Assembly: GCA_963706285.1 (NCBI GenBank)
Contig: CAVPLU010000013.1
Location: 96,001-160,000 of the forward strand
Direction: 5' to 3'
Length of the DNA: 64,000 bases
Source of the DNA: Candidatus Bathyarchaeota archaeon
GTDB lineage: Archaea; Thermoproteota; Bathyarchaeia; 40CM-2-53-6
This document shows, one piece after another, positions 223 through 51,692 of this stretch. The notes under the pieces are model-generated. The model saw only the letters and a list, made by a program, of their open reading frames with translations, was not told where the DNA came from and did not search any database. How positions within the stretch are numbered: the first letter of the stretch is position 1; every line of letters begins with the position of its first letter. The position numbers and the translations under genes were made by a program.

Positions 223-548
223 GACGGTGGCGGCATCCCCAAGTGATGGACACAGTTTCCTTCCACGGTTTTTCAGATGCTTTCTATACCCTGTGATCCT
301 ATCAGCGCCAGCATGTCGACCTTACGACTGCCCTCTTCCGAGTCTCGCCGGGTTCGGCCGCAAAGAAGTCGACCCTTCCCTTCGGAAGAGCCTCTTCCTC
401 CACCGGCCCGGTAGGGCAGGATTTCATCGTTGGCAACTGAAGCCTATGAGAGGAACCAAATGCCTCTCCCTTGAGTTAACGGATCCCCGCGTAGAGCCGA
501 TTTCGGGTAACAAGGAACGGCTGACTCCTCGATCCCCCACCACCGCCG
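223..548 (-). ncRNA. ffs: Archaeal SRP (7S) RNA
   Basis: Terminal helix GGCGGTGGTGG/CCGCCACCGTC; Alu-like TTGTTACCCGAAATCGGCTCTACGCGGG; helix-8-like GAACCCGGCGAGACTCGGAAGAGGGCAG; about 325 nt; TTAAAG about 25 nt upstream. Confidence 0.88.
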
Positions 549-22004: not shown

Positions 22005-22132
22005 TGGGGTTGGCAGCTGTCCAAGTTTCGCGTGGCCTTGCGGAACACACTACTGCCTGAATCGCCTGGGAGATTCACTTCCGTGTTCGGAATGGGAACG
22101 GGTCCTAGCTCCCAGCTATGGCCGCCAGCTCC
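22005..22132 (-). rRNA. rrf: 5S rRNA (not linked to 16S/23S here)
   Basis: GGCGGCCATAGC...ACCCGTTCCCATTCCGAACACGGAAGTGAA...GCTGCC. Confidence 0.95.
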
Positions 22133-23814: not shown

Positions 23815-24376
23815 CATATCCCCACCGAAATCAAGATATATTTTCTGCGGGCATCGCCTGAGCAAGCAGCGAGGGCACCGCATTACTGATCTGTTGGGAC
23901 TTCAGTGCAAGCGGTCCTGAGAACCTGTATGTGTCACGAAAAGAATGCAGTCGTGCAGCTTCTCGCGTTGTGAAGAATCTTGCGTGATCACTATCAGGCA
24001 AACATACATCAAGCTATCATTCTGCATGTGCACAAGTAGTGTGCTATCCCACTGCTGTTCCTTGGACGTCCCGATCCTATCTCATGTGAAATACACTCTT
24101 ACTGAATTGCGGTGCTCCAAAGTCAGCTGCATTGAGCATACTGGAATTCTCTAGTTCCCTCAAACCCTCCAAATTTGGCTGACGATTTTGCCGTTCTGAA
24201 AGAGCCAATACCCGGGGAAATTCTCCATGACGAAGAATTTCGGCCTTGCTTCCTTCATAACTAACATCATCAAACGATGCATTTACCGATAGAATTTCTT
24301 CGATTGCAGCGGAAAAGTGCAACGCCAGGCGATTATGCGTGAAGAACAGCAAGCGCATCAGCGCAAAATAGTAAGT

Positions 24377-24597
24377 TGGTGGGGCCGAAGGGATTGTCAT
24401 GGCGTGCCGCCATTTTGAACCCTCGACTTCCGCCGTTTTTCTTCGTCTACGGGTTTCTCCCGCGCTCCGGAAGATCGTCATCCCACATGGTCAGCAAACC
24501 CGTTGCATGCCAAAGGCTTCTGGAGCCCTTAACGGGGGTTGTCCTGTCGTCATCCCTGGCTAGATTCCGCCGAACCTTGATCATCGCCTACGGCCCC
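24377..24597 (-). tRNA. tRNA-Trp(CCA) with five predicted introns (24565-24587, 24529-24545, 24455-24519, 24428-24446, 24394-24413)
   Basis: Removing the five segments gives a 77-nt cloverleaf ending CCA; each junction has a BHB/BHL-type 4-bp helix; anticodon at 24521-24523. Confidence 0.85.
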
Positions 24598-24648
24598 ACT
24601 GGACGACGACGCTCTGGCCCCACCGAGCTAGACTCGCACGCGAACAAC

Positions 24649-24657
24649 ATATTTAAT
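24649..24657 (-). promoter_or_regulatory. TATA box candidate for tRNA-Trp
   Basis: ATTAAATAT about 25 nt upstream of the leader repeat. Confidence 0.55.
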
Positions 24658-24798
24658 GTTTCACACAGAGCCGCGTTCTTGCGGCAATCCAACTCTAGAC
24701 GCCCGACAAGAAAAGCCATCGACCTTCGATGACTGCCTTGTGAAGAACAGGCTCGTAATCAGTTAGTTGCGACCGAGGGCCTCAGTCAAAGCGTAGAC

Positions 24799-51534: not shown

Positions 51535-51692
51535 GCCGGGATATGAGTGATAGTCTCGCATCCCGAAGGCCGAGTGGATTAACGACCCATGGTGGTCGGT
51601 CTATAGGCGCAGGCCTTGAGTCCGCAAAATGCCGGTCTGGAGAGCCTGTGGCCCTTTGGGCCTCGGGGGTTCGAATCCCTCTCCCGGCGCCA
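51535..51692 (+). tRNA. tRNA-Ser(TGA) with three predicted introns (51543-51567, 51582-51604, 51621-51642)
   Basis: Spliced GCCGGGATGGCCGAGTGGATTAAGGCGCAGGCCTTGAGAGCCTG...GGTTCGAATCCCTCTCCCGGCGCCA; BHB helices CGGG/CCCG, GGAT/GTCT, CTTG/CTGG. Confidence 0.88.

Follow-up and report, generated by a model that had tools for sequence, protein, structure and literature searches.

The stretch analysed here (the window) comprises 64,000 nucleotides (nt), positions 96,001 to 160,000 of contig CAVPLU010000013.1 in the Candidatus Bathyarchaeota archaeon assembly GCA_963706285.1. On its minus strand, at 24377-24597, lies a gene of 221 nt that is very probably a real tryptophan tRNA gene in six pieces, separated by five short archaeal introns. 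Cut by coordinates, the gene consists of six exons of 10, 19, 9, 8, 14 and 17 nt, which sum to 77 nt, and five inserts of 23, 17, 65, 19 and 20 nt. The features are listed below in the order of transcription, with window coordinates and with central helices and intron-side stems of the bulge-helix-bulge (BHB) motifs given for the inserts; stem lengths are in base pairs (bp).

24588..24597 (-), exon 1, tRNA positions 1-10
24565..24587 (-), intron 1, 23 nt, at 10/11; central helix CCGT/GCGG, stem of 3 bp
24546..24564 (-), exon 2, positions 11-28
24529..24545 (-), intron 2, 17 nt, at 28/29; central helix GACG/CGTT, stem of 2 bp
24520..24528 (-), exon 3, positions 29-37, with the anticodon CCA
24455..24519 (-), intron 3, 65 nt, at the canonical site 37/38; predicted box C/D-like guide RNA
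24447..24454 (-), exon 4, positions 38-45
24428..24446 (-), intron 4, 19 nt, at 45/46; central helix CCGT/GCGG, stem of 2 bp
24414..24427 (-), exon 5, positions 46-59
24394..24413 (-), intron 5, 20 nt, at 59/60 in the T-loop; central helix TTCA/TGAC (3 of 4 pairs), stem of 5 bp, outer helix formed by the T-stem
24377..24393 (-), exon 6, positions 60-76 including the encoded CCA

An earlier sequence-only reading had proposed that five cuts reduce the gene to a 77-nt cloverleaf, and the spliced product is indeed reported by ARAGORN as a tRNA-Trp whose anticodon is CCA, with A as the discriminator and the CCA end encoded. The anticodon loop has 7 nt, U33 and, at position 37, a purine. Because the D-loop has 9 nt, the raw breaks after bases 10, 29, 38, 46 and 60 correspond to the standard sites 10/11, 28/29, 37/38, 45/46 and 59/60. 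The central helices claimed at these sites were recovered, with 4, 4, 4, 4 and 3 of 4 pairs for introns 1 to 5, and the bulge of AA followed by one exon base, also described in that reading, is seen at the end of all five inserts. The intron-side stems of introns 1 to 5 measure 3, 2, 0, 2 and 5 bp. The outer helix is provided by the anticodon stem for intron 3 and by the T-stem for intron 5, while those of introns 1, 2 and 4 have at most 2 bp by eye. At least one flanking helix of at least 2 bp is found for the motifs, in the hBHBh', HBh' or hBH form. A protein-coding reading of the locus was also considered and rejected, as the open reading frames at 24077-24481 (-) and 24376-24732 (+) match no Pfam family at E<=0.1.

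In its unspliced state the gene escapes standard annotation. ARAGORN reports 0 tRNA genes in the whole window and none at the locus with its intron option. At gathering scores, Rfam detects in the window only the archaeal signal recognition particle (SRP) RNA (161.4 bits, 225-545, minus strand) and 5S rRNA (80.6 bits, 22008-22129, minus strand), the latter about 2.2 kb from the tRNA-Trp gene and on the same strand, and no tRNA. Relaxing the threshold to E<=10 gave no tRNA match between 24200 and 24800, and none of the 16 RF00005 matches in the 2.13-Mb genome falls at the locus. The expectation that standard tRNA finders would miss such a gene was thus borne out for both ARAGORN and Rfam.

To describe the possible splice patterns we used a solver that enumerates BHB-compatible inserts, defined by two 3-nt bulges on either side of a 4-bp helix in which 3 or more pairs form, and requires a cloverleaf after their removal; an intron-side stem was also demanded unless all four central pairs form. 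Applied to the 221 nt, it returned 1,406 distinct BHB-compatible solutions, among which the pattern given above ranks first.

Orthologous genes were collected by two routes. A DNA search of 60 relatives from the same GTDB order gave a best E-value <=2e-15 in 33 of them. Within the same genus, 6 of 9 genomes match with 89-94% identity; the match spans the whole gene in five of them, and in the sixth (G002) a contig end truncates it. Searching 185,579 species, each represented by one genome, with an exact pattern derived from exons 4-6 added 41 stretches. Their labels read Candidatus Bathyarchaeia or Bathyarchaeota in 36 cases and 'uncultured archaeon' in one, and the remaining four are recorded as bacterial assemblies. 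These four (L029, L030, L055 and L057) are labelled Methylomirabilota, Acidoferrum (twice) and Acidiferrales; they carry the archaeal five-intron tRNA-Trp and probably represent Bathyarchaeia contigs that were mis-binned. After spliced alignment, with duplicates taken out, 54 distinct genes remained, nearly all of them from Bathyarchaeia assemblies; one (L033) is truncated at a contig end. Five introns were assigned in 37 of these genes, four in 11, three in five and two in one. Among the 37 five-intron genes, 31 have the same five sites and the other six have a D-loop intron after position 17 instead of the one at 10/11.

Orthologues that lack individual inserts show the exact junctions. The 10/11 insert is absent and the exons are contiguous in two genes (L011 and L013); the same holds for the 28/29 and 59/60 inserts in L062-L067, for the 45/46 insert in L070, and again for the 59/60 insert in L075 and L076. 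Each non-canonical junction is confirmed in this way, since orthologues without exactly that insert join the exons as predicted. The exons are conserved: all 77 of 77 exon positions are identical in four of four genus relatives, the mature sequence keeps 68-74 of 74 bases across all 54 genes, and every gene of the first batch of orthologues (39/39) yields upon splicing a 77-nt tRNA-Trp according to ARAGORN. The introns of the genus relatives are more variable, with 14-17 of 23, 15-16 of 17, 58-64 of 65, 14-17 of 19 and 17-19 of 21-22 identical positions for introns 1 to 5, respectively.

The changes in the introns preserve the motifs. The exon strand of a central helix cannot vary, and variation was found pairwise in the intron-side stems. 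Intron 1 (10/11) occurs in 34 orthologues with a length of 15-33 nt and all four central pairs in 34 of 34; pair 2 of its stem varies between AT, GC and TA, and pair 3 between CG, AT and GC. Intron 2 (28/29), of 16-88 nt, occurs in 47 orthologues, with 4/4 central pairs in 15 and 3/4 in 32. Intron 3 (37/38) is present in all 54 genes at 57-83 nt. Intron 4 (45/46) was found in 52 orthologues, again with all four central pairs in each (52/52), and its stem pair 2 is AT in 32 and GC in 12. Finally, intron 5 (59/60) occurs in 44 orthologues, 27 of them with a complete central helix, and its stem pair 4 is CG in 28 and TA in 13. RNAalifold, run on 20 genes, recovered the T-stem, the central helix in introns 1 and 4 and the intron-side stem in introns 4 and 5, with six compensatory pairs. 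Contiguous exons in orthologues without single inserts, invariant exons and compensatory stem changes all speak for the five-intron reading, and the comparative data place the predicted splice pattern far above chance. By these alignments, the five-intron architecture of tRNA-Trp is kept across an order of uncultured Bathyarchaeia, in at least ten families.

The comparison also offers a possible source for some of the introns. Exon 1 and exon 4 share the terminal sequence CCGTAG, and the corresponding introns share an end of GGCGGA followed by one more base. In one orthologue (L077, G043:C5:25350-25850), the introns at 10/11 and 45/46 of tRNA-Trp are identical at 16 of 17 positions, both behind CCGTAG, which looks like recent intron copying between the two sites. 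Elsewhere the median identity of introns 1 and 4 is 0.54, compared with 0.43-0.46 for other intron pairs. The origin of intron 1 fits an intron copied into a look-alike site, a mechanism put forward for Thermoproteales (PMC4090602). Another locus (L081, G042:C37:7000-7500) is a non-Trp tRNA gene with a 59/60 T-loop intron whose stem is of the same type as that of tRNA-Trp intron 5, which suggests an intron family common to several tRNA genes.

No other tRNA-Trp locus was found when the mature sequence was aligned in spliced form to both strands of the assembly, a scan that addresses the question raised by the sequence-only reading of whether the genome has a second copy. This locus scored 172.7 and the next independent one, a tRNA-Pro gene, 116.5. 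Two other 'tRNA-Trp' calls of ARAGORN, with odd introns of 65-70 nt, were rejected: the solver assigns them with high scores to Arg(TCG) and Gly(TCC), each with three introns.

We then carried out a census of the tRNA genes of the whole genome. Its seeds required a perfect 7-bp acceptor stem, U8, an encoded CCA, a T-arm and a gene length <=340 nt, so that genes with acceptor-stem introns are missed, because a perfect acceptor stem was demanded. The reversed genome served as the null and gave a maximal score of 29.5 over 25 regions, as compared with scores >=33 for the real loci; three real regions at 30.5-32 are indistinguishable from the null. The 27 leftover regions (14 real and 13 null) were solved only under stricter intron criteria. 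In total 32 loci were obtained, which represent 30 distinct tRNA genes, all of them interrupted, with 74 introns or about 2.5 per gene; these are rough numbers, since isotypes and intron placement rest on the solver score, which can be ambiguous. One intron was assigned in six genes, two in 11, three in seven and four in five, and five introns only in tRNA-Trp. The four-intron genes, predicted by the solver only, are the following (genome G000, with contig and coordinates).

C4:155573-155736 (+), tRNA-Phe-GAA, four introns
C4:264371-264535 (+), tRNA-Gln-TTG, four introns
C4:313731-313893 (-), tRNA-Asn-GTT, four introns
C12:127304-127468 (+), tRNA-Gln-CTG, four introns
C6:70624-70793 (+), tRNA-Arg-CCT, four introns

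About one third of the expected isoacceptors were not found by the census, including Asp, His, Tyr, Glu-TTC and several of Leu, Ser and Arg. Identical copies of Met-CAT and Thr-GGT occur on contigs C4 and C20, and two Arg-TCG genes (C1 and C6) differ slightly; with an estimated contamination of 7.5%, these pairs could be real duplications, strain variants or redundant contigs. Within the window, the solver places a tRNA-Ser(TGA) gene at 51535-51692 on the plus strand (G000:C13:147535-147692), with introns of 25, 23 and 22 nt after raw positions 8, 22 and 35. It is missed by ARAGORN, its score of 34.0 lies near the threshold of 33, and a leader copy of its acceptor strand precedes it by 13 nt.

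Leader copies of this kind are the second feature of the tRNA-Trp gene that we consider. The region upstream of exon 1 contains the following elements.

24650..24656 (-), A/T-rich box resembling a TATA box, some 25 nt before the leader element; putative promoter
24616..24624 (-), leader element GGTGGGGCC, which repeats the 5' acceptor strand
24598..24615 (-), remaining 18 nt of the 5' leader, with a partial complementarity to the 3' end of exon 2 that other genera keep only in part

The element GGTGGGGCC starts 27 bases upstream of position 1 and about 25 nt past the A/T-rich box, and a similar box occurs at equal distance in the orthologues. Its complement is formed by the nine bases that precede the final A of the tRNA, from the acceptor strand, the discriminator and CC, and in all 20 sequences given to RNAalifold the element is paired with the 3' acceptor strand. 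A perfect complement of at least 7 nt within 55 nt upstream was found in 34 of 45 Trp orthologues that have an intron in the 5' part, and most of the remaining ones have, by eye, a complement with one G-U pair; among the orthologues without a 5'-part intron, none of eight has a complement of more than 4 nt. These counts are no statistic, because the relatives are not independent. The same association is observed between different tRNA genes of this genome. Among the 30 solved genes, a leader complement of at least 7 nt precedes those for Trp, Arg(CCG), Cys(GCA), Ser(TGA), Asn(GTT) and Gln(TTG), all of which are interrupted at raw position 8, 9 or 10. One further gene has an intron at raw 8-10, tRNA-Phe; its complement is only 5 nt long, and none of the other 23 genes has one of at least 7 nt (0/23). 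The leader copies begin 10-27 nt upstream of position 1.

Two other explanations of the upstream copy were tried and rejected. A sixth intron between the two acceptor-strand copies finds no consistent BHB register in the five genes with a located copy, tRNA-Trp among them, with mostly at most 2 central pairs and a stem of at most 1 bp; an upstream copy of the first six bases was not located for Gln-TTG or Phe. Nor does the upstream copy make a true exon of tRNA-Trp, since it differs at positions 7 and 8 and leaves only 2 of 4 central pairs by eye. We read the leader element as partner in an RNA pairing, not as a generic promoter word, because it changes with each acceptor stem. The competing view gives the copy no folding role and takes it as a promoter-proximal or initiator element, or as a relic of intron arrival. 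It agrees with the position of the copy at the expected transcription start and with the lack of a BHB motif connecting the two acceptor strands, and we regard it as a serious contender that is nonetheless clearly the less probable of the two. What counts against it is that the sequence of the copy tracks the own acceptor stem in six different tRNA genes, that the copy is confined to genes with an intron near the end of the acceptor stem, both in this genome (6/7 against 0/23) and among the Trp orthologues (34/45 against 0/8), and that covariation with the acceptor stem is not expected of a generic promoter element.

The canonical intron of the gene has a content of its own. A first antisense stretch is followed by a D' box (CNGA); after a short loop come a C' box (ATGANGA) and another antisense stretch, at the following positions.

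24495..24503 (-), guide 1, complementary to tRNA positions 36-43, with C39 paired to the 5th base before D'
24491..24494 (-), D' box, CTGA
24475..24481 (-), C' box, ATGACGA
24464..24473 (-), guide 2, complementary to positions 31-37 and the first three intron bases, with one mismatch at A36

This D'/C' anatomy was recognized by a strict pattern in 46 of 54 genes; the other eight have longer loops, or the wrong intron was picked by the script. In the 46 genes the D' box reads CGGA in 20, CTGA in 19, CCGA in five and CAGA in two. Guide 1 has 8-10 bp through C39 in the right register in 38 of these 46 genes, and guide 2 forms 9-10 pairs through C34, with the one mismatch at A36, in 40. The antisense stretch has the expected length of about 8-12 nt, with its target opposite the 5th base upstream of D/D'. 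For guide 2, C34 pairs at the 8th of 12 bases after C', and the 13th base, where a D box would begin, lies 5 nt further on; the duplex of guide 2 is predicted by RNAalifold in 20 of 20 sequences and also by the minimum free energy (MFE) fold. In this slot one lineage has the canonical CTGA, other lineages have CGGA, CAGA, AAGA or CGGG, and no terminal C box was recognized. The intron stays below membership in the Rfam C/D families, the match to sR40 (RF01297) scoring 14.8 bits against a cut-off of 50 (E = 2.5); sR40 may be the Trp intron of Pyrococcus. From its sequence, intron 3 is thus a predicted box C/D-like guide aimed at C34 and C39, and its working resemblance to the known Trp guide introns is strong.

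Such introns have been described in other archaea. In Haloferax and other Euryarchaeota the tRNA-Trp intron guides the methylation of C34 and U39 (PMC11408192), and Sulfolobus solfataricus has a stable circular tRNA-Trp intron of 65 nt with two complementarities and without consensus boxes (PMC3326292). As in Haloferax volcanii, Pyrococcus and S. solfataricus, the Bathyarchaeia intron is located at 37/38 and is antisense to positions 34 and 39 across the exon-intron junctions, and at 65 nt it has the length given for S. solfataricus (PMC3326292, PMC11408192). It differs from the known Trp guide introns in that only D' and C' are near consensus, with a D box of the form CNGA or NNGA in part of the lineages, and in contrast to the U39 of Haloferax, position 39 is C.

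The genome encodes components that could process the gene. Two EndA paralogues of 186 and 174 amino acids were found, each with N- and C-terminal domains. The longer one is closest to the PDB chains 2cv8_A, 3p1z_B, 3ajv_B and 2zyz_B, which we take to be catalytic subunits of the Sulfolobus, Aeropyrum and Pyrobaculum enzymes, and the shorter one is more distant. The pair fits a putative heterotetrameric endonuclease of the crenarchaeal type. Heterotetrameric and epsilon endonucleases are the types able to cut relaxed motifs at non-canonical sites (PMC5829648, PMC4090602). RtcB is present at G000:C4:105729-107043 (-) in two adjoining, slightly overlapping open frames that match profile positions 1-243 and 236-426, which could reflect a frameshift, an assembly error or a split gene. 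Fibrillarin and the RNase P RNA (183.7 bits) are present as well.

These components allow us to propose a pathway. Transcription would start about 25 nt after the A/T-rich box, at the leader that copies the 5' acceptor strand. By pairing with the 3' acceptor strand, the leader would free bases 5-8 to pair with the end of intron 1, forming the first BHB motif. The central helices use positions 5-8 for intron 1, 23-26 for intron 2 and 40-43 for intron 4, which in the mature tRNA form part of the acceptor stem, D-stem and anticodon stem, respectively, and the anticodon stem also serves as outer helix of the canonical motif. Through these shared bases the motifs exclude each other and the cloverleaf, so that the introns would have to be removed stepwise, the canonical one probably last. 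In each motif a two-subunit endonuclease of the crenarchaeal type would cut in both 3-nt bulges, RtcB would join the exons, and RNase P would then remove the leader. The 65-nt intron, in this view a guide of ancient origin, would together with fibrillarin direct the 2'-O-methylation of C34 and C39.

An ordered removal with the canonical intron last has been demonstrated by reverse transcription PCR (RT-PCR) for a three-intron tRNA of the red alga Cyanidioschyzon (PMC3728597). The nuclear tRNAs of Cyanidioschyzon merolae resemble the Bathyarchaeia gene in having BHB introns in the D-arm, the anticodon loop and the T-loop; unlike it, they belong to a eukaryote, have three introns at most and have been shown to be spliced by RT-PCR (PMC3728597).

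Considering all these data, we estimate at about 0.88 the probability that the locus is a tRNA-Trp(CCA) gene with no detectable second copy in the genome, interrupted by five archaeal BHB introns and presumably spliced stepwise with the aid of its leader. A number of observations weigh against this reading. The top-ranking splice pattern has 1,405 competitors and is separated from them by a small margin in score (37.0 vs 35.5). In MFE folds of the isolated segments, the motifs of introns 1 and 4 are missed (z = 0.26 and 0.20) and that of intron 3 is replaced by the guide duplex. Across the orthologues, the central helix of intron 3 has 3/4 pairs in 47 of 52 genes and 4/4 in only five of 52, and 30 of 52 genes have no intron-side stem at this site. 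The set of orthologues is itself biased, because the pattern of exons 4-6 required introns 4 and 5; a fairer sample are the relatives from the order-wide DNA search, in which every class of intron number is present. Neither spliced junctions nor circular introns were found in the contigs of four RNA runs, two of which (X16 and X19) gave nothing, although junctions between exons of only 8-19 nt are difficult to recognize, the more so in contigs. Finally, a second Trp gene is possible in the missing part of the genome, because the metagenome assembly is 89% complete, with 7.5% contamination. With respect to folding, the helix, bulge and stem of intron 2 and the stem of intron 5 (z = -3.5) are recovered by the MFE fold, so the motif is only partly recovered by thermodynamic folding of isolated introns with their flanks, which is no useful test here.

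The first alternative accepts an interrupted tRNA and assumes another splice pattern, with fewer or other introns or with another anticodon. Besides the crowded field of BHB-compatible solutions, it can draw on the fact that ARAGORN passes 983 of 1,401 alternative products, with Cys(GCA), Gly(TCC) and Ser(GCT) as the most frequent assignments and Val, Ala, Arg and other anticodons also represented. Running a tRNA finder on the spliced sequence, the check proposed by the sequence-only reading, therefore returns the expected tRNA-Trp and is not discriminating when five inserts can be freely chosen. One sequence cannot show that a splice pattern exceeds chance, because so many alternatives also pass. 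The orthologues decide the matter: those without single inserts show exactly the junctions of the first-ranking pattern, its exon blocks are invariant and everything between them varies, and alternatives that differ in the D or anticodon region would have to use intron stretches that are variable between species. A different pattern is for these reasons very unlikely.

Slightly less probable still is a decaying pseudogene riddled with insertions, whose working counterpart would lie in the unassembled 11% of the genome. The incomplete assembly would leave room for such a gene, and the RNA-library contigs are unspliced only. Six RNA runs hold 19-27% of the words, and metatranscriptome contigs from two studies (X15 and X17, 95-99% alike) cover 24405-24569, from exon 2 to exon 5, with introns 2-4 retained; they could be precursor RNA or carried-over DNA. 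With regard to the proposed search for junction reads, these contigs contain the inserts and no junctions, which speaks neither for nor against splicing. Since RNA-library contigs of two studies include the inserted segments contiguously, the inserts are no artefact of this assembly. A pseudogene would further have to account for the same architecture in 31 distinct orthologues of ten families, with a mature sequence that is 68-74/74 identical, and for BHB helices and stems that are maintained by compensatory change. No better Trp locus occurs among the matches in the relatives' genomes searched, and interruption is the rule for all 30 solved tRNA genes of this genome.

An assembly or binning artefact, in the form of a chimeric or foreign contig, is hardly credible despite the contamination estimate and the four bacterial labels among the 41 named records, as the gene lies in a contig of 168,761 bp beside archaeal 5S rRNA and SRP RNA, near-identical genes occur in 6/9 genomes of the same genus, and 43-62% of the sampled words are present in DNA runs of many studies.

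Much of this architecture has precedents. BHB introns, multi-intron tRNAs and the Trp guide intron are already known. According to the tRNAscan-SE 2.0 paper, the published maximum is three introns per archaeal tRNA gene, and Pyrobaculum calidifontis has 71 introns in 46 genes, or 1.54 per gene (PMC8450103). The sites 45/46 and 59/60 are already listed as archaeal intron positions, and similar introns at different sites in Thermoproteales suggest transposition (PMC4090602). The present genome differs from these hyperthermophiles in having five introns in tRNA-Trp, five genes with four predicted introns and about 2.5 introns per gene among the 30 solved genes, and the lineage consists of Bathyarchaeia from soil and wetland. 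The statement of the sequence-only reading that up to three introns are known agrees with the tRNAscan-SE paper and has been overtaken by an Asgard preprint of October 2026, which reports up to five intervening sequences per tRNA gene and 2.20 per gene in the most interrupted families (bioRxiv 10.64898/2026.10.13.758758). Five introns exceed the peer-reviewed maximum of three and are the highest number in our census, and they equal the preprint's maximum. The Asgard archaea share with the present genome the interruption of nearly all tRNA genes and the many introns missed by standard annotation (bioRxiv 10.64898/2026.10.13.758758; PMC11291895). They represent a different phylum, the available text of the preprint mentions Bathyarchaeia 0 times, its counts are also computational, and the passages available describe no leader element. 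Judged by titles and passages, a literature search on Bathyarchaeota, tRNA and introns, confined to one library, gave nothing on this subject.

What sets the five-intron gene apart is that it is order-wide and lies in a new lineage, and the leader element may be new, as nothing like a leader copy of the acceptor strand was found in a limited literature search that included passages of PMC4090602. Its nearest parallel are the split and permuted tRNAs of Nanoarchaeum equitans and Caldivirga, in which sequence outside the tRNA also pairs with it for processing (PMC4090602). In those cases the extra sequences form a BHB motif that is cut by the endonuclease, whereas here the leader pairs with the 3' strand and no BHB motif is formed between the copies.

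A broader proposal would be that Bathyarchaeia have one of the most fragmented sets of tRNA genes, that a surrogate 5' acceptor strand in the leader helps to process introns at 8/9 to 10/11, and that tRNA-Trp, with an intron guiding its own methylation, is the extreme case of such ordered folding and splicing. We offer this as a tentative generalization, to which we give somewhat less than even odds.

The tRNA annotation of such genomes is badly incomplete, as illustrated by the 16 tRNAs that Rfam reports in this genome and by the failure of ARAGORN to report any in the window, and the missed tRNAs distort inferences on completeness and codon usage. Heavy interruption of tRNA genes is not confined to Thermoproteales and Asgard archaea, which bears on the spread of tRNA introns; the hosts in this case, the Bathyarchaeia, are an abundant, uncultured lineage of soil and sediment. 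With six exons of 8-19 nt, the tRNA-Trp gene provides a tractable system for studying how the BHB endonuclease and RtcB handle mutually exclusive motifs, and it allows one to ask whether leader sequences chaperone tRNA processing.

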